From Shigella phage 1b: a stretch of 44,698 nt of DNA. The DNA lies in sequence record OR420686; one strand, 5' to 3'. Position numbers and translations under genes: made by a program. Every line of letters starts with the position of its first letter. The first letter of the stretch is position 1. The notes under the pieces are model-generated. The model had not been told where the DNA came from and ran no database searches. It saw only the letters and a program-made list of their open reading frames with translations. Below, piece after piece: positions 3,947 to 42,869 of this stretch.

Positions 3947-3996
3947 GTGTAGTGTAGATATAGTGAATAGTTATGCAATAAAACTGCATAAACTAA

Positions 3997-4098
3997 GCGG
4001 GACAAAAAGCGGGACAAACAAGGAGCGGGACAAAGCGGGACAGCACCCCTGTCCCGCCCCGGATGACGCGGCCTGGCGGGGAGCGGGACAGCGGGACA
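3997..4098. repeat. iteron-like array of GCGGGACA (six direct copies plus one inverted copy forming a palindrome)
   Basis: Copies at about 3997, 4009, 4025, 4035, 4083, 4091; inverted tgtcccgc at 4050. Confidence 0.75.
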
Positions 4099-4103
4099 GC
4101 ACC

Positions 4104-4160
4104 CCAGTCTTTCAGACTAGACGGGGGGTCTGGCACCCCCCTCGTCTGAGACTGCATAAA
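4104..4160. repeat. GC-rich stem-loop element ending in ctgcataa, copy A
   Basis: cagtctttcagactagacgggggg-tctggca-cccccctcgtctgagactgcataa; near-identical copy at 21390-21446. Confidence 0.7.
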
Positions 4161-4313: not shown

Positions 4314-4342
4314 TTGCGTTCGGCAAGGCGCCCTGCTATATT
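4314..4342 (+). promoter_or_regulatory. sigma70-like promoter (TTGCGT-N17-TATATT) followed by the conserved block TATATTGGTTGCACACCAAC
   Basis: Hexamers read directly; the same 20-bp block recurs in reverse at about 15527-15546 upstream of the minus-strand gene starting at 15505. Confidence 0.45.
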
Positions 4343-4370
4343 GGTTGCACACCAACATGAGGGCCGAACA

Positions 4371-11330: not shown

Positions 11331-12851
11331 ATGACCGTTAACGTTGACAACCAGCACCCACTTTATGCGCGCATCGCGCCAGAGTGGAAAATGATCCGTG
11401 ACTGCGTAGCGGGGGAGCGCGCCGTTAAGGCGTGCGGCCCCTTGTACCTGCCACACCCCGCAAGCGGCGACACCACCGACCCGAAATCACGGGCACGGTA
11501 TAATGCGTATAAGCAACGTGCGGTATTCCTGAACGCCACCGCCCGCACACTGAATGCACTGTTAGGCGTTGCCTTCGCCAAACCGGTGAGTATGGACCTT
11601 TCCGGGGCGATGGCTGACCTGATTGATGACGTTGACGGCAGCGGTATGCCGCTGGCGCAACTCCTGCGCGGTGCTATGTCTGAAGTTCTGCAATCAGGCC
11701 GTGCCGGTTTTATGGTCGACTACGACCGCCAGGCGCATTTTGACGAACTGGGTAACGTAGTACCGCAGACCGCCGCTGAAATGACAGCACACCGCCCGCT
11801 CATCCGCCTGTATACGGCTGAACAGATCATTAACTGGCGGCAGACCCACGGGGTCGACACGCTAATCGTGCTGAAGGAGACGGACGAAATCAGCACCGAA
11901 GACCCGGACGACTTCGCAAACCACGAAGTAACTATCTGGACTGAGCTTCGCATGATTTCAGGAAAGGCCCACGCCCGCCGCTGGTTTTACAACGCGGACA
12001 CGTCCGAGGTGCAAATGGACTTGCCGCGTGGATTCACCCGCACCGATCTTGTACCGCTGGTGGATGCCTCCGGTAATGCGCTAACTCAACTGCCATTTTG
12101 CTGGTGTGGCGCGGTGGACAACAACGCGACACCGGACGCCGCACCACTGGCGGATATCGCGTCCATCAACATTAAGCACTACAACGCCGAAGCCGACGTC
12201 GCCGAGATTGCGCACATCGTGGGGCAACCTACCCTCATTGCGACCGGTCTGACTCAATCATGGGCGGACAAGAACCTGAAAGGCGGCATCGCGCTCGGGG
12301 CAACTAAGGGCGTTATCCTGGGCCAGAACATGGACGCCAAACTGCTTCAGGCGGAGGAGCGCAACTTGTCTGTTGCACTGTGTGAGCGCCGCGAATTGCA
12401 AATGGCTAAACTGGGCGCGGCCCTGGTCGAGAAGGGGACCGCACCTAAGACGGCAACCGAGGCGGCCTACGATGCGCAGACAGATAACAGTATCCTGTCA
12501 CTGATTGCCGGTAACGTTGAGAAGGCTTTCAACCGTGCGCTGCAAATCGTCAAGCTGTTCACTGGCGACACCGCAGATCAACGCGTAACGCTGAATAAGT
12601 TCTACACCGAAATCACGGTTGACGCACAGCTTATGACCGCAATGATGTCGGGGGTGCAGACCGGTACTATCCGTCTGGCTGACTTTATCAAGTGGATGAT
12701 GGCCCAGGGCGTTATTGACGACTCGCAAACCGTCGAGCAGGTGGAAGACGAACTGCGAAATCAGAATCCATTGCCTCAAATGTCCCCTGATGCGGTAGAA
12801 TCTACCGAAGAAGACCCGGACAAGGTAGCGGACAATGGCGAAGACAATTAA
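11331..12851 (+). CDS. portal protein
   Basis: 506 aa ORF directly after the large terminase; AAGGAA RBS; acidic C-terminus; assigned by position and size. Confidence 0.6.
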   Translation: MTVNVDNQHPLYARIAPEWKMIRDCVAGERAVKACGPLYLPHPASGDTTDPKSRARYNAYKQRAVFLNATARTLNALLGVAFAKPVSMDLSGAMADLIDDVDGSGMPLAQLLRGAMSEVLQSGRAGFMVDYDRQAHFDELGNVVPQTAAEMTAHRPLIRLYTAEQIINWRQTHGVDTLIVLKETDEISTEDPDDFANHEVTIWTELRMISGKAHARRWFYNADTSEVQMDLPRGFTRTDLVPLVDASGNALTQLPFCWCGAVDNNATPDAAPLADIASINIKHYNAEADVAEIAHIVGQPTLIATGLTQSWADKNLKGGIALGATKGVILGQNMDAKLLQAEERNLSVALCERRELQMAKLGAALVEKGTAPKTATEAAYDAQTDNSILSLIAGNVEKAFNRALQIVKLFTGDTADQRVTLNKFYTEITVDAQLMTAMMSGVQTGTIRLADFIKWMMAQGVIDDSQTVEQVEDELRNQNPLPQMSPDAVESTEEDPDKVADNGEDN

Positions 12852-13938
12852 TCAATATATGGCGGATCGAATGATCCGCCGACACATCTTCACCCAGCGC
12901 CTGAGCAATGACCAGGCGCGAAGGGTGCTTGCTATGTGGGAGAAGTTCCGGCCCACGTTACTGGGTAAGCTGACCGAGTTACTTGATGGCAAAAAGTCCA
13001 TGAACAACAAGGCACTTACCACTTTGTTAACGCAACTCGACAAGACCGTTAAAGCAGAATTGCGCACCGAGTTTAAGTCGTTGGCGGAAAGCCTTCAGGA
13101 GTTTGCCGACACCGAGGCCGATTATCTCGCCGACACATTGACGGCAGCGATCCAGCCGGTGGTCGCCGTACCTGCGGTCGAGGTGGTTGGCGTAGTGACC
13201 GGTGCGCAGATCGCAGCTACGGCAATGAAAAACCCGTTCCAGGGTAATACGATGATGCAATGGCCTGACTCACTTTCTGAGTGGACCAGGACGCAGATCG
13301 GCAATCAGGTGCGCGCCGGATTCATCCAGGGCAAGCCGACTATGGAAATTATTGCGGACGTGAGGCGCGCGCTAGGCGGTCGTAGTGCGCAAGCTATCTC
13401 GAGCGTTGTTAAATCCGCAGTAAACCACTATGCGGCGACGGCCCGCGAACTAATGGTAAAAGCAAATGACGATATTCTCGAAGGTCGCCAATGGTTATCT
13501 ACATTGGACACGCATACTTCTCCCATGTGCCAGCTACGCGATCGCCTGTTTTATCCGGTTGATGTTACTCCCGATACGAAAGGGAAGCGAGGTGGGAAAG
13601 TGGTGGCGGGGTCACAATATGGCGCTGGTCCGGGCAAGCTACATTATTGCTGCCGTTCGACGGAGACGTGGAAAGTCAAAGGCATGGAAGATTGGCCCAG
13701 TGGTAAGCGTCCGGCACTGAAGGCCGACGCAGGCAGATTGCTGAGTGAGCAAGTCGACGCGCAGACTGATTTCTTCTCATGGGTGCAGCGCCAGCCGCGC
13801 CATATCCTGGAGGAATTATATGGAGTGCAACGCGCCGACCAGATTATGCGCGGCGTGAAAGTGCCGAAGATGTTTACCGATTCTGGCGAACTGATGACTA
13901 TCGCACAGCTTAAAAACCGGGGGTTATGGCGTGATTAA
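12835..13938 (+). CDS. head morphogenesis protein (minor head protein, Mu F-like)
   Basis: 367 aa ORF after the portal gene; assigned by position. Confidence 0.45.
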   Translation: MAKTINQYMADRMIRRHIFTQRLSNDQARRVLAMWEKFRPTLLGKLTELLDGKKSMNNKALTTLLTQLDKTVKAELRTEFKSLAESLQEFADTEADYLADTLTAAIQPVVAVPAVEVVGVVTGAQIAATAMKNPFQGNTMMQWPDSLSEWTRTQIGNQVRAGFIQGKPTMEIIADVRRALGGRSAQAISSVVKSAVNHYAATARELMVKANDDILEGRQWLSTLDTHTSPMCQLRDRLFYPVDVTPDTKGKRGGKVVAGSQYGAGPGKLHYCCRSTETWKVKGMEDWPSGKRPALKADAGRLLSEQVDAQTDFFSWVQRQPRHILEELYGVQRADQIMRGVKVPKMFTDSGELMTIAQLKNRGLWRD

Positions 13939-14239
13939 ATATGCAGCGATCGGACTGGTTATCGGTCTGGTGGTAGGATTCTGGCAGGGCGATTCCTATC
14001 GCGCTGGCGTAGTGGCGAGAGCGGCGCAAGAAGCGCAAGCGAAAGCCCAACGGCAGCAAACTAAGGTCGTCGAGGGGTCTGTGCAGGCCGAACAGGCCCG
14101 CGACGTGGAATATCGGACTATCACGAAAGAGGTTGTGAAATATGTTACGCGTCCTAACCGTACTGATTGCCGTTTTGATGATGAGCGCGTGCGGATCAAG
14201 CAACGTGCCATCGACGCCGCTAACAGAGTCGGTCTATAG
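13931..14239 (+). CDS. i-spanin (Rz-like), putative
   Basis: GTG start; N-terminal transmembrane helix (IKYAAIGLVIGLVVGFW) then Ala/Gln-rich helical periplasmic domain; partner lipoprotein gene overlaps out of frame. Confidence 0.55.
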   Translation: MIKYAAIGLVIGLVVGFWQGDSYRAGVVARAAQEAQAKAQRQQTKVVEGSVQAEQARDVEYRTITKEVVKYVTRPNRTDCRFDDERVRIKQRAIDAANRVGL

Positions 14240-14372
14240 ACCGCCTTGCACCTTTGAGAATGCCTCGGCAGATCCAGACGAAGACTTGCTGGTTGATGTT
14301 AAGAATATGGAGTGTGGTGCTAAGCTGAGGGCGCAGGTCCTGGAGTTGCAGCAAATAATTAAGGGGCCGTAA
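14142..14372 (+). CDS. o-spanin (Rz1-like outer-membrane lipoprotein), putative
   Basis: Signal peptide with lipobox LMMSAC-G; Pro-rich mature region; starts inside the i-spanin gene in another frame (overlapped architecture). Confidence 0.55.
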   Translation: MLRVLTVLIAVLMMSACGSSNVPSTPLTESVYRPPCTFENASADPDEDLLVDVKNMECGAKLRAQVLELQQIIKGP

Positions 14373-14384
14373 TGGCCCCTTTTT
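14364..14384. terminator. GC-rich hairpin between convergent genes, with T-run on the plus strand
   Basis: ggggccgtaatggcccc followed by ttttt; lies between the o-spanin stop and the stop of the minus-strand gene 14387..15151. Confidence 0.6.
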
Positions 14385-14386
14385 CG

Positions 14387-15151
14387 TTAGCGCGGAATAC
14401 CGCAAATCTCGTTGAGAGTTTTCACATCCAGCGCCACCGCCGTGGACTTCGGCTTGTCCGGGTAAGGGATGAATTGCTCAACTTCAGGCCATGCATTAAT
14501 CAGCTTCGTATCGGTATTGTGCATATCCAGCACGCCGGTAACAGTTAGTTTGAACGCGTCATACTTAGCCCGCAACTCACGGCGGGCCTTGTCGTTACGG
14601 TCCAGGCGCTTGCAGAAATCATGGTCCGCCGGGTAGTCTACGCGACCGCGCGGAAGATATATCGGCAGCGATTTTCCGTCCTCGTCCACTTCGCACACTG
14701 AAGCCAGCATAACTTCCTCGTACCCCGGTACGATATCGCCGAGATCGGGAGATAGCTTATTCATGTATTTATATTCCCAGTATCCGCGATGTACGCGGTA
14801 TTGGCGACCGTCACCGCTCATGGACAAGGTGCGCACATTTCCGCCTGCGTTGATTTCGAAAGTGGCGTCATAAACGCTGCCGATACCGTTCGGGCTGTCG
14901 GCGTCATAACGATACGTCGCCTTGTTGGTGTAGACGCAGACGCAGTACATTGGCGACTTGGCACCTTCTAGTGCTTCAATATATGCGCGTAACTCGGCGA
15001 ACGTGCGAATGCCTTCCGGCATACAGTCCAGCGTAATGGCATAAGCCAGGTCGCGCGAGTCCACCATGATTTGTTTGGCTTCGGTTGCGATTTCATGGTC
15101 GCGCAGGATGTTAGCCAGGATCTGATTTTTAATGACTTTCGTCAGTCTCAT
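14387..15151 (-). CDS. hypothetical protein (254 aa), opposite strand to the surrounding morphogenesis genes
   Basis: Long ORF with GAGGA RBS; no recognisable motif. Confidence 0.6.
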   Translation of the reverse strand: MRLTKVIKNQILANILRDHEIATEAKQIMVDSRDLAYAITLDCMPEGIRTFAELRAYIEALEGAKSPMYCVCVYTNKATYRYDADSPNGIGSVYDATFEINAGGNVRTLSMSGDGRQYRVHRGYWEYKYMNKLSPDLGDIVPGYEEVMLASVCEVDEDGKSLPIYLPRGRVDYPADHDFCKRLDRNDKARRELRAKYDAFKLTVTGVLDMHNTDTKLINAWPEVEQFIPYPDKPKSTAVALDVKTLNEICGIPR

Positions 15152-15190
15152 TTTTATGTCCTCATTTTAGGGGCTTCCGCCCCGTTTGGT

Positions 15191-15505
15191 TTAGTTGAAT
15201 TTGATGTTGCCGCCGGTGGAAGTTAAGCGAGCACATACAGCTTCAACGGCATCGACGCACATGAAATCGTTAAAGGCTTCGACCAGGGCGTTAATGAAAG
15301 ATGCCGGAACCAGGCCGCAAGCCGGATTATCGAATGTCGCGGAGTTGATCGCCGCTTTTGCCGCTTCGGAAGCATTCATGCTCTGGCACAGATTCAGCGC
15401 TTCCGCGTTACGCATTGCGTGAAAGGTAAAGGTATTCGCTACGGTAGCTTTATTGAAACGGGCCATTGCGGCGTCTACTGGAGTTGCTACGGTCATGTTA
15501 GTCAT
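15191..15505 (-). CDS. hypothetical Ala-rich protein (104 aa), first gene of the divergent two-gene unit
   Basis: Track ORF trimmed to the ATG at 15505, which has an AAGGAA RBS; promoter-like block upstream. Confidence 0.55.
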   Translation of the reverse strand: MTNMTVATPVDAAMARFNKATVANTFTFHAMRNAEALNLCQSMNASEAAKAAINSATFDNPACGLVPASFINALVEAFNDFMCVDAVEAVCARLTSTGGNIKFN

Positions 15506-15540
15506 CTTGTTTTCCTTCATATCTCTGTTGGTGTGCAACC

Positions 15541-15570
15541 AATATAGCGCAACCAACTCCCGCAGTGCAA
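15541..15570 (-). promoter_or_regulatory. sigma70-like promoter (TTGCAC-N18-TATATT) for the minus-strand two-gene unit
   Basis: Read on the reverse complement; shares the block TATATTGGTTGCACACCAAC with the promoter at 4314-4342. Confidence 0.45.
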
Positions 15571-15660
15571 GCGAATTTTGCGATTATTTTTATCGCTGAT
15601 AATATTAGAAGCGTGAAGTCGAGCGGGTGGCCTGCTCTGCCACAATCCCAGGGGGATAGC

Positions 15661-16362
15661 ATGAAACTTACTAAAGCAGAATATGACGCGTTGCCGGAAG
15701 GTATGAAGGCGCTTTTTGTTGCCGATGGCGACGGGTATAAATCAACGTTCATGACCGCAGAAGAAGTACAGGCGGAAATCAAGGGTCTGAAAGACAACAA
15801 CGCTAAGCTGGTGAGCGAGAAGAAAGCAGAAGCCGAACGCCGCGCCGAAGCTGAGCGCCTTGCGAAAGAGAAAGAGGAAGCCGCCGCGCGCAAAAATGGC
15901 GACCTCGAAGCGATCGACAAGTCCTGGAAAGATAAGTTTGCGAAACACGAAGCAGACACATCGGGAAAAATCGAAGCCTACCGCAAGCAGATCCACGATC
16001 TAACCATCGGCAGCGCTGCCAAAGACCTGGCATCGAAGCTATTCGGTAAGAATGCCGGGATCATGCAACGCCACGTAATGGACCGACTGACGCTGGAAGA
16101 CGGCGAAGACGGCAGCTTGAAAGTGCGGGTATTGCAGGATGGTAAACCGTCCGCGCTGACTATGGAAGAGCTTGAAAAAGAGTTCCGTAATAACGCCGAT
16201 TTTGCATCCGTCCTGGCAGGCACGCCAGCCGGTGGCGTGCCGAGCAAACCGACGCAGGTCGTCGAAGATGTGAAGTCTAAAATCACTATGGGCCACAGCT
16301 TCGGCATCACTGACTTAACGAAACAGGCCGGTGAAATCATCGCTAAAATGGGCGACGAGTAA
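15661..16362 (+). CDS. scaffolding protein, putative
   Basis: Track ORF trimmed to the ATG at 15661 (AGGGGGA RBS); charged coiled-coil sequence (KAEAERRAEAERLAKEKEEAAARK); immediately upstream of the major capsid gene. Confidence 0.5.
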   Translation: MKLTKAEYDALPEGMKALFVADGDGYKSTFMTAEEVQAEIKGLKDNNAKLVSEKKAEAERRAEAERLAKEKEEAAARKNGDLEAIDKSWKDKFAKHEADTSGKIEAYRKQIHDLTIGSAAKDLASKLFGKNAGIMQRHVMDRLTLEDGEDGSLKVRVLQDGKPSALTMEELEKEFRNNADFASVLAGTPAGGVPSKPTQVVEDVKSKITMGHSFGITDLTKQAGEIIAKMGDE

Positions 16363-16459: not shown

Positions 16460-17560
16460 ATGTCATTAACAGTGTTCCAGCGTAAACTCGTTACCGCGGT
16501 TACGCAAATGATCCCCGACAACCTGAACGTGTTCAACGCTGCCGCTAACGGTGCTGTTGTTCTCGGCACGGGTGAAGTGCTGAAGGACGTTGTAGAAAAA
16601 ATGTCCGTAGGCTTGATCGCCAACCTCGTTACCGACCGTAACGCCTACGCCCCTGTAGGTACTCCGGCGACCGCAAAAGTGCTGGCGCGTATGCTGACCA
16701 ACTCCGTTAACCTTTCCGCGAAAGTGGGTCCGGTAGCAATCACGAAGGCCATGATGGCTAAAATCGAAACCAACGTTAACAGCGTTGCGGCTGAGATTGC
16801 GGCGCAGGCCACTCAAGCGATTTTGCTGCATTACCTGAAAGCGGGTATCGGTGCTGGTAAAGCGGCGATCGAAAGCAACGCAGCGGCAAAATACACCCAA
16901 CCGGCGCGCGTTGACGGCGTTGGCGGTCGTACCTTCCCGACCCTGGCAGACTTCCCGCTGGCGGCTTCTAAGTTCGGCGATCAGGCGTCTTTGATTAAGT
17001 CCTGGTTTATGGACGGCGTTACCTGGGCAAACTTCATTGCGTACCAGGCACTCCCTTCCGCTGAACAGGTATTCGCGATTGGCGACCTCCAGGTAATGGG
17101 CGATGGCCTGGGCCGTCGCTTCATTATCTCCGATGCCGCTGCCGATGCTATGGGTGCCGGTAACATGCTGGGTCTGGTCCCTGGCGCGGTTGCAGTTACC
17201 ACCAATGGTCTTGATATGCTGGCGCAGGAAAAAGGCGGCAACGAGAACATTGAGCGCTGGTGGCAGGGTGAGTTCGACTTCAACGTGGCTGTTAAAGGCT
17301 ATCGTCTGAAGGCGTCCGCTCGTACTCCGATCGAAGGTGTACGCTCGTTCAAACTGGACGATATCACCACTAAGGATAACTGGGAACTGGACCAGGGCCA
17401 GGTAGACAACGCACCGGCAACCGTTCAAGATGTTGGCGCGGTTGGTGACGGCGATACTAAAGGCCGTCGTAAAACCCAGGCTGCGCAGGCAGTGCCTACC
17501 CGTCACATCAAGGAAACGGCGGGCGTACTGGTTACGCTGACTGCGACTACCGCGTCTTAA
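16460..17560 (+). CDS. major capsid protein, putative
   Basis: 366 aa ORF after the scaffold gene; AAAGGA RBS; strong terminator downstream; assigned by position and size. Confidence 0.6.
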   Translation: MSLTVFQRKLVTAVTQMIPDNLNVFNAAANGAVVLGTGEVLKDVVEKMSVGLIANLVTDRNAYAPVGTPATAKVLARMLTNSVNLSAKVGPVAITKAMMAKIETNVNSVAAEIAAQATQAILLHYLKAGIGAGKAAIESNAAAKYTQPARVDGVGGRTFPTLADFPLAASKFGDQASLIKSWFMDGVTWANFIAYQALPSAEQVFAIGDLQVMGDGLGRRFIISDAAADAMGAGNMLGLVPGAVAVTTNGLDMLAQEKGGNENIERWWQGEFDFNVAVKGYRLKASARTPIEGVRSFKLDDITTKDNWELDQGQVDNAPATVQDVGAVGDGDTKGRRKTQAAQAVPTRHIKETAGVLVTLTATTAS

Positions 17561-20378: not shown

Positions 20379-20408
20379 TTTGGTCGCTTAAATAGCGAGT
20401 GATAATAT

Positions 20409-21127: not shown

Positions 21128-21386
21128 GCGGGACAAAACGGGACGTCCCGCTTTGTCCCGCCTCTGTAAAACTGCATATCTAATCACTTCCATTGCATAA
21201 ACCAAAAGCGGGACAGGCGGGACGTCCCGTTTTGTCCCACCCCATAAATGTGCATATCTATTCGCATTTCGTGCATAAAACAAACGGGACAAAAAGCGGG
21301 ACAGACCGGGGGCGGGACAAAGCGGGACAGCACCCCGTCCCCGCCAGTGCTGCCGCTGGTTTCAGCCGATCGGGACAGGCGGGACA
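21128..21386. repeat. iteron-like array of GCGGGACA/CGGGACA repeats (about 10 copies, including two ~34-bp palindromic units centred on GGGACGTCCC)
   Basis: Palindromes at about 21128-21162 and 21208-21240; direct copies at about 21284, 21294, 21312, 21322, 21371, 21379. Confidence 0.75.
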
Positions 21387-21389
21387 AAG

Positions 21390-21446
21390 CCCAGTCTTTC
21401 AGACTAGACGGGGGTCAATGGCCCCCCTCGTCTGAGACTGCATAAT
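21390..21446. repeat. GC-rich stem-loop element ending in ctgcataa, copy B
   Basis: cagtctttcagactagacggggg-tcaatgg-cccccctcgtctgagactgcataa; near-identical to 4104-4160. Confidence 0.7.
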
Positions 21447-31668: not shown

Positions 31669-33264
31669 ATGGCAGCGGGTACACTATCCGTAACGAATAA
31701 CAGCAAGGCGGTAGTCGGTGTCGGCACAACGTTTACCGCGCTTAAAGCTGGCGACTTTCTGTCGCTGGTAGTGGGGCAAGTCCCTTATACTGTTGCTATT
31801 GCGTCCGTCGAAAGCAACACCGCGCTTACGCTGGTGCTGCCGTTCGACGGCCCTACGGCAACCGGCCTTGGTTGGGATAGCGTAGCGCGCGATACCATGT
31901 CGCTGGCGACGATGGGTGTAACCGTCCAGGCACAGAAAGCACTTCGTATGCTGATCGCGGACGAAAACAACTGGCGTGCAATCTTCGGAGACGCTGAAGA
32001 AATCTCTGTCACGCTGCCTAATGGTCAGGTAATGCAGGGCATGTCCTGGGGCTACCTGTCGCAATTGCTGAAGGACGTAGACCCCGTTGAGATGCGCAAC
32101 CTGCAACAGCAAGCGGCCGCATCGGAAGCCGCCGCGCAAGGATTTCGCAATGAGGCCGAAGGCTTCAAGACTGAGACGGCAGGGATTCGCGACGACACCG
32201 ACCGGATTAAGGCGGATACGCAGGCCATCAAAGACCAGACGAACCAGATCAAGACTGACACCGGCGCTATGCGGGACGAGGCCAACACCGCCAATACTGC
32301 CGCGCAAGCCGCCAACACTGCCGCGCAAGCCGCCAGCGCTGCCGCGCAGGGGTACCGGAACGAGGCCGAACAATTCAAGAATGAGATCGACCCGTCGAGA
32401 TTGCTGGCAAAGGCCAACAACCTGAGCGACGTTGCCGACACAACGGCAGCGCGGGGTAACTTAGGCTTGGGGTCTGCGGCGACGCTAGATGCCGGCACGT
32501 CTGGGAATAAAGTGCCAAAACTAAACAATGCAAACACATGGTCGCGGCCGCAAACTTTCATAACCCCATTAGCGGTCGAGTCTGGCGGTACTGGCGTAAA
32601 CAGGGTCGAGGATCTATGGCCCGTGGTACGACCGCTCGATGTGTTTGGTAACGTCGGACGCTTTTTTGGAATACCGGACAGTATTCCCAAAAACCACATC
32701 TGGATGTGGAACCCGGCGGACACGCCGGCGTCAGGTTGGGCGAACTATTTAGAAGGCGGATGGTTCAATGGCGCGTGGCGTATCGGTGGTATACGTGGTT
32801 CAGGTCAGGATATGGCAGCATGCCAACTGTCAGTTTACAGCGGTCAGGGTATGAATAGCGACTATGTATTCAATAACAACGGCACCGCAAGCGCCGCAAA
32901 CTGGGTCAACACATCCGACATAAGAGTAAAACGCGATATAGCTAAAATAGAAGACCCGCTAACTAAGATGCGCTCTATTCGAGGCGTATCATGGACTATG
33001 CGCTTCAAAAACAACCCCCTTAAAGGTTTCGGTTTTATCGCACAGGAAGTGCAAAAGTATTTTCCTGATGCTGTTAGAGTGGTAAACCAAAACCCTGTCA
33101 CACTTGAAGACGATACCGTTGTTGAGGATGTAATGAGCGTTGACACCGCGGGAGTGTCCGCCGCGCTACATCACGAAGCCATACTAGCACTGATGGATAA
33201 AATGGAGGATATGCAGAAAGAACTGGAGGCGTTGAAAGCCGAGCTAGCGGCGATGAGGAAATAA
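31669..33264 (+). CDS. tail fibre protein with C-terminal intramolecular chaperone (S74-like) domain
   Basis: Track ORF trimmed to MAAGTLSV (GAGGA RBS); fibre repeat GTLSVTNNSKAVVGVGTTF; Ala/Gln coiled-coil region; C-terminal SDIRVKRDIAKIEDPL...GFGFIAQEVQKYFP typical of auto-cleaving chaperone domains. Confidence 0.75.
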   Translation: MAAGTLSVTNNSKAVVGVGTTFTALKAGDFLSLVVGQVPYTVAIASVESNTALTLVLPFDGPTATGLGWDSVARDTMSLATMGVTVQAQKALRMLIADENNWRAIFGDAEEISVTLPNGQVMQGMSWGYLSQLLKDVDPVEMRNLQQQAAASEAAAQGFRNEAEGFKTETAGIRDDTDRIKADTQAIKDQTNQIKTDTGAMRDEANTANTAAQAANTAAQAASAAAQGYRNEAEQFKNEIDPSRLLAKANNLSDVADTTAARGNLGLGSAATLDAGTSGNKVPKLNNANTWSRPQTFITPLAVESGGTGVNRVEDLWPVVRPLDVFGNVGRFFGIPDSIPKNHIWMWNPADTPASGWANYLEGGWFNGAWRIGGIRGSGQDMAACQLSVYSGQGMNSDYVFNNNGTASAANWVNTSDIRVKRDIAKIEDPLTKMRSIRGVSWTMRFKNNPLKGFGFIAQEVQKYFPDAVRVVNQNPVTLEDDTVVEDVMSVDTAGVSAALHHEAILALMDKMEDMQKELEALKAELAAMRK

Positions 33265-34537: not shown

Positions 34538-34995
34538 GTGAATTTTGCAACGTTTATTGCGTAAATTTTAGGGACCAAATCACCACACGCCCGACGAATT
34601 GCCGCGATGTTCTTCTCGCAATCTTCAATGATGACCAGTTCAGACACGTCCGCGTAACAGACCATTTTGAACACGGCGCACGCCTTAAACTCTGGCGGCG
34701 GGGTGTCGTCCAGCATGTGGCGCATAAACAACCGGCCTGTCGGGAATACTTCCAGTTGTTCGGCGGTGGTGTCCCAACATTCTCGCTGCCGGTTGGTCAG
34801 ATACGCGATCTCGAAGCCTTGCGCTTTATACATGCGCAACAGCGGCAGCATATCCATGTTCAGATCTTCGCGTGTATGCGCTTTGTGCCACTTCGCCCAG
34901 AAGGTGGATTTTGTTTTTATACCCGGCACCAGGTCGGCCCGCGCATCGCTTGAACCGTTAATAACGCCATCCAAATCGCAAATCAGTAATTTCAT
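34525..34995 (-). CDS. HAD-superfamily hydrolase (putative phosphatase/nucleotidase)
   Basis: N-terminal MKLLICDLDGVI matches HAD motif I; GAGGAA RBS. Confidence 0.6.
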   Translation of the reverse strand: MKLLICDLDGVINGSSDARADLVPGIKTKSTFWAKWHKAHTREDLNMDMLPLLRMYKAQGFEIAYLTNRQRECWDTTAEQLEVFPTGRLFMRHMLDDTPPPEFKACAVFKMVCYADVSELVIIEDCEKNIAAIRRACGDLVPKIYAINVAKFTCNQ

Positions 34996-35225
34996 TTCAA
35001 TTCCTCGATCAGATTCATACGAACAACACGGGCAGAAAAAGCGTCACACACAAGATGGCAACGGGCGGTCATTACAAGCCAGCCGGTAAGGTCCATGCCG
35101 AGCAATTGCTCCGGGCGACTGACCCGCAGCACTTTGTTCTCCCTCGGGTTAATTTGGTAGCGTTTAACAATTTCGTCCACGACGCGCATACTGCGGTCAA
35201 CGACTAAGATATTCATGTAGCTCAC
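34992..35225 (-). CDS. hypothetical protein (77 aa)
   Basis: GTG start per track; overlaps neighbouring genes by a few bases. Confidence 0.4.
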   Translation of the reverse strand: MSYMNILVVDRSMRVVDEIVKRYQINPRENKVLRVSRPEQLLGMDLTGWLVMTARCHLVCDAFSARVVRMNLIEELK

Positions 35226-35682
35226 TCTCGCTCATTATTTCAATTTGTGCGCTGCCGATTGGTGGCGCTTCGTCAAAGATTATCAATTGCTGGCACTTGT
35301 TATTGCTCGGCCCGACTTCACCGGTGACAGCATGTATAAATCGTATCCGCCAGTCCAGAAGAATTATCAGGTTTGCAGTCTTCCGGGCCAACTTCGCCCA
35401 CTTCGTCGACGTGTCCTGATTCAGCAGCATGACAGTCCGTCGTCCGTGCGCTGCGCACTCGACCCACGGCAGCGGATCGGAATACGGCGGGTTGCACCAC
35501 TTCCACCCTTTCAACTCTGACCAGTCCACATCGAGCGCGCTGTTCTCCGCCGTGAAGTAACGCGGCAGCAGGTGGTTGGCGTCGCTCGCCGCCATATCGT
35601 AACGGAATCGGTACTTACGACGCAGTGGTTTAAATAAAGCTGGCGGCGTGCGCCAGCTATCTTTTTGCTCACTCTTCTGCAT
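35197..35682 (-). CDS. DNA N6-adenine methyltransferase (phage Dam family)
   Basis: DSWRTPPALF...YDMAASDANH...WCNPPYS: the NPPY catalytic motif and the N-terminal DxWxTP signature of phage Dam-type methyltransferases. Confidence 0.75.
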   Translation of the reverse strand: MQKSEQKDSWRTPPALFKPLRRKYRFRYDMAASDANHLLPRYFTAENSALDVDWSELKGWKWCNPPYSDPLPWVECAAHGRRTVMLLNQDTSTKWAKLARKTANLIILLDWRIRFIHAVTGEVGPSNNKCQQLIIFDEAPPIGSAQIEIMSESELHEYLSR

Positions 35683-36133
35683 GGTCGGTGTCTATCGCAT
35701 ACAGGGCGATTTTATTGCCGGTTTTGAGAATGCGTTGCACGCGCTTTGTCTCCTCAGCACTAAGCGGGCGCGCGTCCGGGTAGAAGCTGCCATTTGTAGG
35801 GTTGCGCCACGCCATAAGCACCAAATCTTTACGGTCAACCTTAGACTGGCGACCTTTGGGGGGCACGTATCCCTCGGCGCGTTTGCATTGCTCGCGCAGA
35901 CCTTCGGCAGTGATGCGGTTTAGTGCAACGCTGGTGGTGTATCCGGTGCGCTGCATAATCCCCATCAATTCGAATAGCAGTTCGAAGCGCTCCTCTAACT
36001 CCTTGCGCACTTTCTTCTCTCCTTCATATAGCGCCTGGTTGGTGTCCGCCAACGCGTTCGCACGTTCGGCCTGTTCACGGGCTTCGAAGCATTGCGCGGC
36101 CCAGTATGCTTTTTCTTCTTGTAAAATTTTCAT
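35669..36133 (-). CDS. hypothetical protein (154 aa), coiled-coil N-terminus
   Basis: GGAGA RBS; no motif recognised. Confidence 0.5.
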   Translation of the reverse strand: MKILQEEKAYWAAQCFEAREQAERANALADTNQALYEGEKKVRKELEERFELLFELMGIMQRTGYTTSVALNRITAEGLREQCKRAEGYVPPKGRQSKVDRKDLVLMAWRNPTNGSFYPDARPLSAEETKRVQRILKTGNKIALYAIDTDHAEE

Positions 36134-38407: not shown

Positions 38408-38581
38408 TTATTTTTGCTCTGCGCGGTAGCGGCGCTGCCGTTCGCGCTCTTTTTTATTGCGGCATGATTTGCACTCTGCCCGATACCCGTCCGGGCTTCG
38501 CGCAGTCTTACCGGTGTATTTATGGAACTGGGATAGCGGTTTAACGCAGCCGCAATTACTGCAGCGTTTTTCTTCAATCAT
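38408..38581 (-). CDS. small zinc-ribbon protein (57 aa) with basic C-terminus
   Basis: Track ORF trimmed to MIEEKRCSNCGC (GAGGA RBS); two CxxC pairs; resembles the N-terminal zinc-ribbon repeats of the HNH protein at 38897..39499. Confidence 0.5.
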   Translation of the reverse strand: MIEEKRCSNCGCVKPLSQFHKYTGKTARSPDGYRAECKSCRNKKERERQRRYRAEQK

Positions 38582-42083: not shown

Positions 42084-42869
42084 TTAACGGCGGCGACGTT
42101 TGCGTGGTGCTTCGTCTTCGTCGTCGTCCTCATCATCTTCGTCATCGCGTGGCTTACGACGTTTACGAGGTTTCTCGTCTTCGTCTTCGTCATCGTCATC
42201 GCGGCGCTTGGATTTTTTGGACTTGCGCGGTTTGTCGTCTTCGTCATCGTCATCACGACGTTTTGACTTTTTGGACTTACGCGGGCTTTCGTCTTCGTCA
42301 TCGTTGTCCAGGTCTTCGTCGGAACATGAAGACCCGCCACCGCCGAAGGCTTCGCCGTCTTCACGGAATCGCAGACCCAGCAAGCCCGCCCCAAGACCCT
42401 TGCCGTTGGTATTGTTCCACGCCCAAATATCGAGGGACACGTTGCAATAACAACCGGAATAGATCTCCTGGCCTTCGATCTCGTCGCCTTCTACGGTCAG
42501 ACCTTGTTCCGTCTGCTTCTCGCCCAGTGACGTTTGGATGTTAGGCTGTTTGAACGATTTAGCGTTGATGTACAACATGCCTTCAAATTCTTCGGTTACT
42601 TCGTCACGCTCGTCACCGTCGCGAACTGCGCATTCCTTAGAATCCTGGGCGTAGTGGCGGTCCATCCACTTATCGGCATTCTTCTCGGATTTCAGCTTGT
42701 CGGTGAGCACTGCGCGCGCTGCCGCTTCCACTTTGTCCACCTGCGGATCTTCTTTATCAAGAAGAATCACGGCGCGGTATGCCGGTTTTTGTCCATCCTG
42801 TTTAGGGGTGTCACGTTCCCAAATTTTCAGGAAACATACGCGCACATTTTTCAGGTTGACTTTCGCCAT
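42084..42869 (-). CDS. ssDNA-binding-like protein (DUF2815/T7 gp2.5-like) with a long repetitive acidic/basic C-terminal tail
   Basis: Track ORF trimmed to MAKVNLKNVRVCF (GAGGAG RBS); N-terminus typical of phage gp2.5-like SSBs that pair with a DUF2800-type exonuclease; C-terminal 90 aa are alternating DDDDEDE and KSKKSKRR tracts. Confidence 0.5.
   Translation of the reverse strand: MAKVNLKNVRVCFLKIWERDTPKQDGQKPAYRAVILLDKEDPQVDKVEAAARAVLTDKLKSEKNADKWMDRHYAQDSKECAVRDGDERDEVTEEFEGMLYINAKSFKQPNIQTSLGEKQTEQGLTVEGDEIEGQEIYSGCYCNVSLDIWAWNNTNGKGLGAGLLGLRFREDGEAFGGGGSSCSDEDLDNDDEDESPRKSKKSKRRDDDDEDDKPRKSKKSKRRDDDDEDEDEKPRKRRKPRDDEDDEDDDEDEAPRKRRRR

Follow-up and report, generated by a model that had tools for sequence, protein, structure and literature searches.

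An opposite-strand accessory slot carrying nmad5 among the head genes of a Dhillonvirus, with the Tmn escape residue inside a constrained C-terminal module

The opposite-strand unit carrying nmad5 in the window (the whole stretch of 44,698 nucleotides analysed here) is a slot for dispensable accessory genes: promoter-like region and terminator are constant among relatives and the cargo genes between these fixed boundaries are exchanged. The window is the genome of an E. coli Dhillonvirus with 90-92% DNA identity to approximately 150 GenBank phages, including ΦSM_A8. Dhillonviruses are popular candidates for phage therapy, and a single Nmad5 residue decides whether they are sensitive to Tmn. 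Our analysis locates the constrained module that carries this escape residue, K216, and separates nmad5 from the base-modification story; Nmad5 is a common phage protein whose name implies an enzymatic role. We lean slightly towards an explanation in which the nmad5 accessory slot is self-contained, Nmad5 is a non-catalytic binder with K216E as a gain of function, and the neighbouring 104-aa protein is independent. The locus and the nmad5 gene have already been described and are genus-wide; this is not a new kind of system.

Both minus-strand genes that the first-pass annotation had placed between the spanin pair and the scaffold gene were found there, and all of the flanking genes run on the plus strand (Table 1) and carry identical names in the annotated relatives. 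The two ORFs are real genes. Purifying selection acts on nmad5 (dN/dS 0.14, 10 Dhillonvirus genomes) and on the 104-aa gene (dN/dS 0.07, 4 genomes), and the good ribosome-binding sites reported for both are present (GAGGA, 7 nt ahead of the ATG of nmad5, and AAGGA, 8 nt ahead of the ATG at 15505 of the 104-aa gene). The description of the 104-aa protein as Ala-rich was also correct (21% Ala). The two ORFs share a frame, but a normal state of readthrough or fusion was rejected, because a stop, 13 codons and a separate ribosome-binding site lie between them and each gene is found without the other. Recent import signalled by deviant composition was rejected as well, as the GC content of nmad5 (0.531) and of the 104-aa gene (0.511) is near the genome value (0.545). 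A search of Rfam for non-coding RNA at the locus gave nothing above noise.

Table 1. Positions of the nmad5 unit, its putative signals and its flanking genes in the window.
Feature	Position	Strand	Description
Head morphogenesis gene	12835-13938	+	Flank
Spanin pair	13931-14239 and 14142-14372	+	Flank
Bidirectional terminator hairpin	14361-14384	both	GGGGCC-N5-GGCCCC and T-run; shared by the Nmad5 unit (-) and the spanin operon (+), which are convergent
nmad5	14387-15151	-	254 aa; Pfam PF18757 Nmad5, phrog_1965; ortholog of ΦSMA8 CDS7
Conserved C-terminal module of Nmad5	14390-14641	-	Residues 171-254
Lys216 codon	14504-14506	-	HNTDTK216LINAW present; escape-site Lys kept in the window Nmad5
Fast-evolving patch of Nmad5	14912-15031	-	Residues 41-80; dN 0.15-0.16 in 30-codon windows; variable block in the alignment
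Small hairpin GGGGC-GGAA-GCCCC	15170-15183	-	3' boundary of the cassette, behind the upstream cargo gene; -11.4 kcal/mol
104-aa cargo gene	15191-15505	-	21% Ala; phrog_24635, a PHROG without a functional label; between promoter-like site and nmad5
Leader and RBS of cargo gene (AGAGATATGAAGGAAAACAAG)	15506-15525	-	Cassette 5' boundary
23-nt block	15526-15548	-	Exact match to 4335-4357(+); blastn-short E 9e-8
Two copies of over-represented motif (A)TTGGTTGC	15535-15543, 15549-15556	-	From motif counts
Promoter-like site of nmad5 unit	15541-15570	-	-35 TTGCAC (15565-15570), 18-nt spacer, -10 TATATT (15541-15546); read from sequence
Divergent promoter-like site for scaffold and capsid genes	15578-15605	+	TTGCGA-16 nt-TAATAT, TG upstream of -10; putative, read from sequence
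Scaffold gene	15661-16362	+	Flank
Major capsid gene	16460-17560	+	Flank

The unit had been credited with its own sigma70-like promoter. The promoter scan gave no sigma-70 site for the unit at its threshold; TTGCAC-18 nt-TATATT lies below that threshold yet is conserved in all of the relatives examined. The 155-nt intergenic region that holds it is almost invariant, even in a relative whose Nmad5 is only 62% identical, and the claim is retained here for a conserved promoter-like site. A second promoter-like site, which would serve the scaffold and capsid genes in the opposite direction, falls within the same 155 nt and was likewise not called by the scan. The conserved block said to be common to another promoter is indeed an exact 23-nt match. 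Moreover, the (A)TTGGTTGC motif is strongly over-represented (15 vs. 0.55 expected; 22 vs. 2.0 expected), and the unit's promoter-like site is one of five TTGCNN-N17/18-TATA(T/G)T sites with the TTGGTTGC motif in the genome. The anti-Tmn homolog is preceded by the same architecture, as is a 57-aa Zn-ribbon gene with 'Lar-like restriction alleviation' as its best PHROG label. By analogy with the look-alike promoters of these two genes, we infer that the unit's putative promoter is early-type. The terminator scan placed the hairpin expected at the end of the unit at 14361-14381 and called it on both strands; the folding energies are -16.3 and -15.9 kcal/mol (z about -2.4 to -2.7), with a good T-run on the plus strand and only a moderate one on the minus strand. 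Terminator look-alikes occur at 20408 and 33266.

Nmad5 is encoded at this position in ~145 of the ~158 Dhillonvirus-type records (capsid genes are present in 158). This distribution and the non-deviant GC content speak against a recent arrival of the unit, which had been described as an insert. Among the relatives, SM_S22, SECphi18, WFI and L008 have nmad5 alone between putative promoter (P) and terminator (T), while the 104-aa gene lies between P and nmad5 in the window, SSL-2009a, Bas85 and Zumzum. Its place is taken in Zar3M by a 135-aa gene, with leader and hairpin as in the window, and in EP23 by a clamp-like gene followed by a remnant of the 104-aa gene (P-clamp-like-[104aa remnant]-nmad5-T). 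The order is P-nmad5-T-clamp-like-T in phage rolling, where the terminator hairpin is duplicated and flanks both sides of the inserted gene, and P-135aa-T, without nmad5, in HK578. The clamp-like cargo, of 170 aa, shows a weak similarity to the central domain of the sliding clamp (E 2.6e-5, below the Pfam cut-off). An identical AAACCAAACGGGGCGRAAGCCCC trails the different 135-aa gene in Zar3M, and in EP23 it trails the remnant of the 3' end of the 104-aa gene. Leader AGAGATATGAAGGAAAACAAG is also found ahead of the 135-aa gene of Zar3M, which is unrelated and is read in a different frame from the ATG of the common leader; this supports 15505 as the start of the 104-aa gene. In cargo-less relatives, the sequence diverges exactly after CACCAAC.

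The first-pass annotation had read the unit as a moron with a role in phage-host conflict. Morons, in the sense of Juhala/Hendrix 2000, are extra genes with their own promoter and terminator, lying between conserved genes of lambdoid and HK97-type phages. The nmad5 unit resembles them in having a terminator and a putative promoter of its own in a late operon, in a cargo that is present or absent among close relatives, and in the hairpins that flank inserted genes. However, slot and main cargo are kept in ~90% of the genus and composition is not deviant. In addition, the phage is virulent, so that the logic of lysogenic conversion is inapplicable to the unit. The earlier reading is thus largely borne out, by the opposite-strand position, the conserved promoter-like region, the terminator, the variable cargo, the absence of structural homologs and the published results on the ortholog (Tmn escape by K216E, dispensability and apparent toxicity on cloning).

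The two genes do not form a fixed pair. The 104-aa gene is present in ~60 of the Dhillonvirus-type genomes, and in 63-71 phage records against ~145 with Nmad5; it is absent in SM_S22, SECphi18, WFI and L008, and it occurs without Nmad5 in unrelated phages (Pantoea Dibbivirus AAM37, Ackermannviridae). Its product matches phrog_24635 (E 1.1e-67) and gave no match in Pfam, NCBIfam, PADLOC or the PDB by sequence and profile searches. H29, C63, C83 and C91 are invariant, and the AF2 model is unusable (pLDDT 51). The statement that neither protein has a recognisable motif therefore holds for the 104-aa protein, which has no family beyond its PHROG, but not for the 254-aa protein, which matches Pfam PF18757 Nmad5 with E 1.7e-54 and 185.5 bits (gathering cut-off 27 bits), residues 1-253 aligning to profile positions 1-206, and phrog_1965 with E 3.8e-58. 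Searches of Pfam and PHROG found no homology of either protein to capsid, scaffold, decoration or maturation families, in agreement with the earlier view that these are not ordinary structural or assembly proteins.

Nmad5 is 83-93% identical in ~145 phage records. The family signature is complete in the window protein (N-terminal xRLT, G104, T213, K216-L217, W221-P222-E223, L246-N247 and G251-(L/I)-P253), and its columns are 65-100% conserved among 100 diverse members. Constraint is concentrated in the C-terminal module, formed by a long helix, T213-x2-K216-L217-x3-W221-P222-E223, a Pro-rich linker and a terminal L246-N247-x3-G-(L/I)-P helix. In a sliding window, dN/dS was 0.02-0.04 in residues 171-254 vs. 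0.30-0.37 in residues 41-80, and the last 20 residues are identical even where overall identity is 36%. Three stand-alone proteins (P0057, P0135 and P0186) consist of the C-terminal module only. The AF2 model scores pLDDT 88 and pTM 0.81, and no known fold, enzyme-like fold or PDB relative was found for Nmad5; nor were a DNA-binding or known replisome-interaction motif, a PADLOC match, or similarity to known toxins or defence-related families. Residues conserved across the family are few and mostly hydrophobic, with sparse polar ones, although H177 (60%) and the D/E columns may leave room for an unrecognised active site. The family search yielded 364 representative clusters at 50% identity, with members in Dhillonviruses, in lambdoid phages (Stx-converting ones among them) and in phages of Pseudomonas, Bordetella, Klebsiella and Vibrio; a word-indexed profile search added few further distant members.

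The nmad5 genes of the Dhillonviruses ΦSMA8 (CDS7) and ΦSMS22 (CDS6) were described by Yamashita et al. (2025, Commun Biol 8:290; PMC11846954). In that study, K216E in ΦSMA8 Nmad5 (K296E in the ΦSMS22 annotation) led to escape from the Tmn defence, and only K216E, not wild-type Nmad5, gave protection from Tmn. Deletion of nmad5 was viable, with no growth defect reported, and did not give Tmn escape; cloning of the gene failed, with apparent toxicity. The authors read Nmad5 as a DNA modification enzyme (PMC11846954); in the window genome, our analysis gave nothing in favour of catalysis. We found no essential difference between these genes and that of the window: gene and opposite-strand site between spanin and scaffold genes are the same, at ~90% DNA identity, and the 104-aa gene is likewise present in ΦSM_A8 (99% identical). 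We rejected the 334-aa 'long Nmad5' of ΦSMS22, an ORF over-extended upstream through the promoter; the 80-residue offset makes K296 of ΦSMS22 the same residue as K216. This lysine sits inside the conserved C-terminal motif. Column 216 is K/R in 76% of the 100 diverse family members, and the neighbouring L217 is 99% conserved. HK578, which naturally lacks Nmad5, agrees with its dispensability.

For the genomic contexts of Nmad5 we drew on annotated phages plus three contigs from metagenomes; the position of the gene differs widely among the other phages. In the M6-like Pseudomonas phages (M6 gp56 and SN1_019) and in Bordetella phage CN2 (gp15), the protein belongs to the same Pfam family (E 2.2e-33 for M6 gp56) and has the same C-terminal signature, but it is 186 aa long and lacks the ~50-residue beta insert of the window protein. 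There, the gene lies between aGPT-Pplase and dUMP hydroxymethylase, in clusters for 5-hmdU-derived thymidine hypermodification. The dUMP hydroxymethylase (a thymidylate-synthase homolog), the 5-hmdU DNA kinase and the aGPT-Pplase of that system are beside Nmad5 in M6 and CN2 and absent in the window. A Pfam scan of the 35 non-structural ORFs of the window found Dam, PolA, SNF2, DUF2800, an Enc34-type SSB and phosphatases. Hydroxymethylase, 5-HMUDK, aGPT-Pplase, glycosyltransferase and radical SAM proteins were all missing from this set, and no hypermodification partner genes were found in the annotated relative Bas85. The window genome is without a thymidine-hypermodification pathway. Membership of the Nmad5 family stands nonetheless, because the association with modification genes is contextual and not a sequence criterion.

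Elsewhere, Nmad5 keeps other company. In lambdoid phages (HK542 gp33 and Stx1/Stx2-converting phages; same family, E 3.2e-72) it is a single accessory gene. The slot of HK542 gp33 is typical of exclusion or anti-restriction genes and has no modification cluster nearby, as in the window; unlike the window gene, it immediately follows N in the pL early operon, shares the strand of its neighbours, and encodes 207 aa without the insert. Nmad5 adjoins dCTP deaminase and dNMP kinase in L007, heads an exonuclease-SSB-DNA polymerase operon in Klebsiella phage VLCpiS11a, and adjoins DUF2800 nuclease, SNF2 helicase and primase-polymerase genes in the metagenomic loci. Given its neighbours in M6, CN2 and L007, the role of the family may be tied to modified nucleotides; the replication and recombination neighbours fit an accessory role at the replisome or in recombination as well as counter-defence. 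One Vibrio myophage has the gene within its tail module.

In the explanation towards which we lean, the nmad5 unit would be transcribed early by the host RNA polymerase, along with the counter-defence genes of like promoter architecture. Nmad5 would be a non-catalytic binding protein and not a 'DNA modification enzyme', and its C-terminal module (residues ~171-254; TxxKL-x3-WPE and the tethered LNxxxG(L/I)P helix) would contact a conserved partner, possibly a host or phage component of DNA metabolism or immunity. K216E would be a gain of function, in which a changed binding specificity neutralises Tmn or ceases to provoke it; this would fit the failure of nmad5 deletion to give Tmn escape, a negative deletion result from one paper. 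Residues 41-80, which evolve fast, may be the side of the protein that host surveillance meets. The 104-aa protein would be an independent small accessory factor rather than an obligate partner of Nmad5.

Nmad5 could instead be an accessory factor of replication or recombination that binds DNA intermediates or the exonuclease, Gp2.5/Enc34-type SSB, DNA polymerase or clamp; the link to Tmn would then be indirect, with K216E altering a replication-dependent state that is sensed. We judge this unlikely, though a serious possibility. The VLCpiS11a operon and the metagenomic neighbourhoods point to it, the window has this module as well (DUF2800, Enc34-type SSB, PolA and SNF2), the alternative 170-aa cargo is weakly clamp-like, and Dhillonviruses escape many defence systems via mutations in replication genes. 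However, nmad5 is dispensable (PMC11846954) and absent from HK578, it is physically apart from the replication module in Dhillonviruses and lies in the accessory slot after N in HK542, and none of the DNA-binding or replisome-interaction motifs searched for was found. That Nmad5 serves to modify DNA or nucleotides, as an enzyme or as a cofactor, and that Tmn senses the modification made, is improbable in our view. The family name, the thymidine-hypermodification clusters of M6, SN1 and CN2, the neighbours in L007 and the interpretation of the authors of PMC11846954 argue for it. Yet neither the window nor the HK542 locus has the partner enzymes, there is no enzyme-like fold or PDB relative and conserved polar residues are sparse. 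Moreover, reconstitution of the M6 pathway used gp51-gp55, and that paper never mentions gp56, the Nmad5 homolog; Dhillonviruses are comparatively RM-sensitive, described as resisting type I and II RM less than the 7-deazaguanine-modified Queuovirinae do. The Tmn sensitivity of Δnmad5 is unchanged, contradicting a modification made by Nmad5 as the trigger.

We give equally little credence to the unit as a source of host-takeover toxins (Nmad5, perhaps also the 104-aa protein) that shut down host replication, transcription or the envelope, with Tmn escape as a side effect of altered timing. The failed cloning of nmad5, the accessory slot with its own putative promoter and the homologs in early operons (HK542 and VLCpiS11a) are consistent with this, but the toxicity is only apparent, no growth defect was reported on deletion, and nothing resembling known toxins or defence-related families came out of the searches. 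That both proteins are structural or head-assembly accessories is hardly credible: the position between the head-morphogenesis/spanin genes and the scaffold gene, and the tail-module gene of the Vibrio myophage, would suggest it, against the opposite strand, the unit's own putative promoter and its terminator, PHROG families of unknown function without structural homology, viable deletion, the lack of Nmad5 in HK578, exchangeable cargo and homologs in early operons elsewhere.

A bolder reading, speculative and rather unlikely as a whole, would make the C-terminal ~80-residue module a widespread autonomous 'immune-interface' domain of phages. Its binding to NTPase defence proteins, KAP-type (Tmn-like) or others, would be allele-specific, and a single exchange like K216E would switch the phage between sensed and protected. 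The unit would be a cassette-exchange site dedicated to counter-defence, where recombination swaps cargo bounded by hairpin and leader (104 aa, 135 aa or the clamp-like 170 aa) and the ATTGGTTGC promoter motif ties its regulation to that of the anti-Tmn and Lar-like genes. The mechanism of Nmad5 is now directly testable, and the slot is a natural insertion site for engineering Dhillonviruses.

Other Dhillonvirus immune triggers are Ksap1, which triggers KpAvs2 and is a 74-aa gene between methyltransferase and phosphatase genes, and the portal, which triggers RAZR; Borvo and Retron-Eco8 escapers are in polymerase and SSB. All of these map elsewhere and were rejected as occupants of the nmad5 unit. 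In Dhillonviruses, the outcome against Tmn is decided at one other locus besides nmad5, the anti-Tmn of ΦSMS22 (ORF35); its protein is unrelated to Nmad5 and inhibits Tmn as wild type, whereas wild-type Nmad5 does not. We took SM_S22 CDS0035 to be this ORF35, an inferred match, because CDS0035 is nearly absent from SM_A8. The homolog of CDS0035 in the window (35669-36133, minus strand) is 81% identical, has the same promoter type and belongs to phrog_10530, with no Pfam match.

The two minus-strand genes between the spanin pair and the scaffold gene form an autonomous accessory unit with exchangeable cargo, largely in line with the moron-like layout proposed in the first-pass annotation: the promoter region and the terminator are constant, while the content between them varies. 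Both ORFs were found where that annotation had placed them, each behind a Shine-Dalgarno sequence as it had described, and are genuine genes: dN/dS was 0.14 for nmad5 (pairwise NG86, 10 genomes) and 0.07 for the 104-aa gene (pairwise NG86, 4 genomes). The terminator scan also recovered the expected hairpin, terminator-like on both strands. A promoter scan of the unit made zero calls at its threshold, but a minus-strand TTGCAC-18 nt-TATATT sequence lies inside a 155-nt intergenic region that was nearly invariant in every relative examined, down to the metagenomic phage L008 with just 62% identity in Nmad5. The conserved block said to be common to another promoter is a perfect 23-nt match. The 104-aa ORF and nmad5 lie in one reading frame, and in the 87-aa metagenomic protein P0053 an apparent in-frame deletion has fused the 104-aa protein's N-terminus with the final 46 residues of Nmad5. 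Look-alike terminators (GGGGCC-N5-GGCCCC-TTTTT) close the spanin, major-tail and tail-fibre units.

Positions in the window of the unit, its signals and the other features discussed
Feature	Position	Strand	Remark
nmad5	14387-15151	-	254 aa; unit headed by motif-bearing site 1 of 5
104-aa gene	15191-15505	-	21% Ala; frame shared with nmad5 over 15151-15505
Terminator hairpin	14361-14381	both	fold ~-16 kcal/mol; first-pass position 14364-14384
Promoter-like sequence	15570-15541	-
23-nt block	15526-15548	-	matches 4335-4357 (+)
ATTGGTTGC / TTGGTTGC motifs	1036, 3849/3903/3938, 4226/4310/4341, 4881, 7553/7576, 15542/15556, 31651, 34523/34528, 36196/36213, 38645, 42926/42942
phrog_9839 gene	4371		headed by site 2 of 5
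DUF6378 gene	34461		headed by site 3 of 5
154-aa gene	35669-36133	-	headed by site 4 of 5
57-aa zinc-ribbon gene	~38408-38578	-	headed by site 5 of 5
109-aa HTH gene	1232-1558	+
Look-alike terminators	14362, 20408, 33266
77-aa ORF	34992-35225	-
Direct repeat	3985-4159, 21130-21445		143 nt, 78% identity
Inverted repeat	21130-21151, 21217-21238		22 nt, perfect
Tandem repeat	32288-32350		21 nt, three copies
Acidic and basic-coding units	42094-42320		54-63 nt, repeated

The 13900-15700 region of the window matched 153 GenBank phage records at 80-92% identity, nearly all of them Escherichia/Shigella Dhillonviruses (e.g. SSL-2009a, JLBYU60, Bas83/85, SM_A8 and EP23). Annotated relatives show the order terminase, portal, head morphogenesis, spanins, two minus-strand hypothetical genes, scaffold and major head protein; matches and gene order together identify the window as a complete or near-complete Dhillonvirus genome. 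Between promoter region and terminator, nmad5 stands alone in SM_S22, SECphi18, WFI and the related loci L008/L009, and it is preceded by the 104-aa gene and a hairpin in the window, SSL-2009a, Bas85, Zumzum and SM_A8. In Zar3M, an unrelated 135-aa gene precedes nmad5, lying between leader AGAGAYATGAAGGAAAA and trailing hairpin AAACCAAACGGGGCGRAAGCCCC as the 104-aa gene does in the window. EP23 carries a clamp-like 170-aa gene, then a remnant of the 3' end of the 104-aa gene (GGCGGCATCAAATTCAACTAA) and the hairpin, then nmad5 (L019 3110-3206). In rolling, nmad5 is followed by the clamp-like gene with the terminator hairpin duplicated, one on each side of it (L016 3955-4700), and in HK578, the type species, the 135-aa gene is present and nmad5 absent (L023 1679-2101). 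The HK578, EP23 and rolling arrangements are footprints of repeated cassette exchange. In JL1, nmad5 is reduced to a fragment.

The comparison across related phages that the first-pass annotation had proposed found Nmad5 in 143-145 records of the phage collection and the 104-aa cassette in ~60, compared to 158 with the scaffold and capsid DNA; the clamp-like gene was present at ≥80% identity in 16 records, and the 135-aa gene in 7 Escherichia records, which cover four phages with several duplicate entries. The cargo genes are all found in unrelated phages too (the 104-aa gene in a Pantoea Dibbivirus and in early regions of Ackermannviridae, the 135-aa gene in Serratia and Erwinia phages, and the clamp-like gene commonly among other siphophages, from Salmonella, Klebsiella and Escherichia), which makes the 104-aa gene a probable mobile accessory gene in its own right rather than a dedicated Nmad5 partner. 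Its protein has the invariant residues H29, C63, C83 and C91 and is helical by prediction, at a confidence too low for use.

The gene family, the locus and its link to the bacterial defence system Tmn have been published before, and the genus, to which the window adds one member, is well sampled. Yamashita et al. 2025 (PMC11846954) dealt with exactly this nmad5 gene. Nmad5 K216E (K296E in ΦSMS22 numbering) was common to Tmn-escape mutants of ΦSMA8 and ΦSMS22Δanti-Tmn; its reversion restored Tmn sensitivity and its introduction conferred resistance, while deletion of nmad5 gave no escape (PMC11846954). The window Nmad5 carries K216, and its two-gene layout is also that of ΦSM_A8. The 80-residue offset in ΦSMS22 numbering comes from an annotated ORF whose upstream extension crosses the promoter and overlaps with the scaffold gene; we rejected this long start in favour of the family-wide MRLT. 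Our analysis adds the case against catalysis in this genome, a constraint map, the anatomy of the cargo slot with its conserved boundaries, and the common promoter motif, additions that are useful but incremental.

The first-pass annotation recognised no motif in either protein. This did not hold for the 254-aa protein, which is a full-length match to Pfam PF18757 ('Nucleotide modification associated domain 5', E 1.7e-54) and also matches phrog_1965. Among 1.84 billion representative proteins, a profile search gave 364 family members at E<=1e-3, most of 180-230 aa, so the Dhillonvirus Nmad5 is a form with an insert of about 50 residues; proteins consisting of the C-terminal module alone also exist (e.g. 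85-95 aa). The AF2 model was confident (pLDDT 88, pTM 0.81). The chain opens with a helical hairpin, passes through a beta region at ~79-126, most of which is the insert, and a long helix at 178-209, and then runs via short helices and a Pro-rich linker into a terminal helix at 243-250. The PDB gave no match to sequence or profile queries, and a BFVD search returned only Nmad5 family members. Among 100 diverse members, the strongly conserved columns were G104, T213, L217, W221, P222, E223, L246 and N247, together with K216 (76% K/R), P229 and G251-(L/I)-P253. This signature is short and mainly hydrophobic, and does not form an evident set of catalytic residues. Identity over the last 20 residues is complete even in a homolog at 36% overall, and dN/dS is very uneven (0.02-0.04 at residues 171-254 vs. 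0.30-0.37 at 41-80), in a gene whose dN is ~5x that of the flanking capsid genes. Conservation and dN/dS place the Tmn-escape residue within the constrained core of the family; the most constrained module of Nmad5 thus holds the escape site.

We lean towards Nmad5 acting by binding rather than catalysis: it would bind through the C-terminal module, and K216E would alter binding specificity. Such a gain of function is consistent with the failure of nmad5 deletion to give escape. It is considerably less probable that Nmad5 is a replication or recombination accessory factor, as its place at the head of an exonuclease-SSB-polymerase operon in Klebsiella phage VLCpiS11a might suggest. Nmad5 is non-structural and, according to the work on the published ortholog, dispensable (PMC11846954); a structural role is very improbable. 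The gene was not clonable, apparently through toxicity (PMC11846954); we consider a host-takeover toxin unlikely.

A modification enzyme or cofactor is equally doubtful. In keeping with its name, Nmad5 lies within the thymidine-hypermodification cluster of M6, SN1 and CN2, and adjoins dCTP deaminase and dNMP kinase genes on one metagenomic contig. Unlike those systems, the window lacks the corresponding enzymes: a Pfam scan of its 35 non-structural ORFs found Dam, PolA, SNF2, DUF2800, an Enc34-type SSB, phosphatases and HTH proteins, but no hydroxymethylase, kinase, aGPT-Pplase or radical SAM enzyme. The VLCpiS11a operon also speaks against modification, as does lambdoid HK542, where N in the pL operon is immediately followed by the homolog (E 3e-72). 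Moreover, the paper on reconstitution of the M6 pathway names gp51-gp55 but at no point gp56, Dhillonviruses reportedly resist type I/II RM systems less well than the modified Queuovirinae do, and the Tmn sensitivity kept after nmad5 deletion argues against Tmn sensing an Nmad5-made modification. Because most evidence for this genome points away from it, the label 'DNA modification enzyme' is unsupported here.

Chance predicts 0.55 copies of motif ATTGGTTGC and 2.0 of TTGGTTGC, but 15 and 22 are present, mostly in pairs 14-31 nt apart in intergenic promoter-like regions. Five sites of the form TTGCNN-N17/18-TATA(T/G)T contain the motif, with an RBS and start codon 3' of each; it resembles a phage-specific promoter or operator element. 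The 154-aa protein is 81% identical to SM_S22 CDS0035, whose gene is full-length in 152 phage records. In Tmn-sensitive SM_A8 it is cut to a 36-residue remnant, which fits the published anti-Tmn ORF35 (PMC11846954); CDS0035 is probably that ORF. The PHROGs label 'DNA ligase' for this family looks wrong (no Pfam match, coiled-coil-like N-terminus). The 57-aa Cys4 zinc-ribbon protein (MIEEKRCSNCGC...), encoded by the first gene 3' of its motif-bearing promoter, has 'Lar-like restriction alleviation' as best PHROG label (E 6.5e-17) and also matches zinc-ribbon parts of endonuclease families. The promoter type common to the Nmad5 unit and such genes hints that the unit may be regulated along with counter-defence functions. 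One candidate for a regulator binding ATTGGTTGC is a 109-aa protein with HTH_23/HTH_28/Sigma70_r4_2 matches, which is encoded just upstream of the helicase-primase gene and called 'transposase' in Bas85.

Elsewhere, the Dam gene and a HAD-phosphatase/PNK-like gene flank a 77-aa ORF, which sits where Ksap1, the SECphi18 trigger of KpAvs2, has been described (PMC11564622). The direct repeat is accompanied by GGGAC-rich arrays, and its two copies follow the helicase-primase gene and precede the tape-measure gene, respectively; hairpins match between the two regions (GGGGGT...CCCCCC-TCGTCTGAGACTGCATAA), and an inverted repeat is also present. Further repeats were found within the tail-fibre gene and in the region of the minus-strand Enc34-type SSB gene, at its upstream end.
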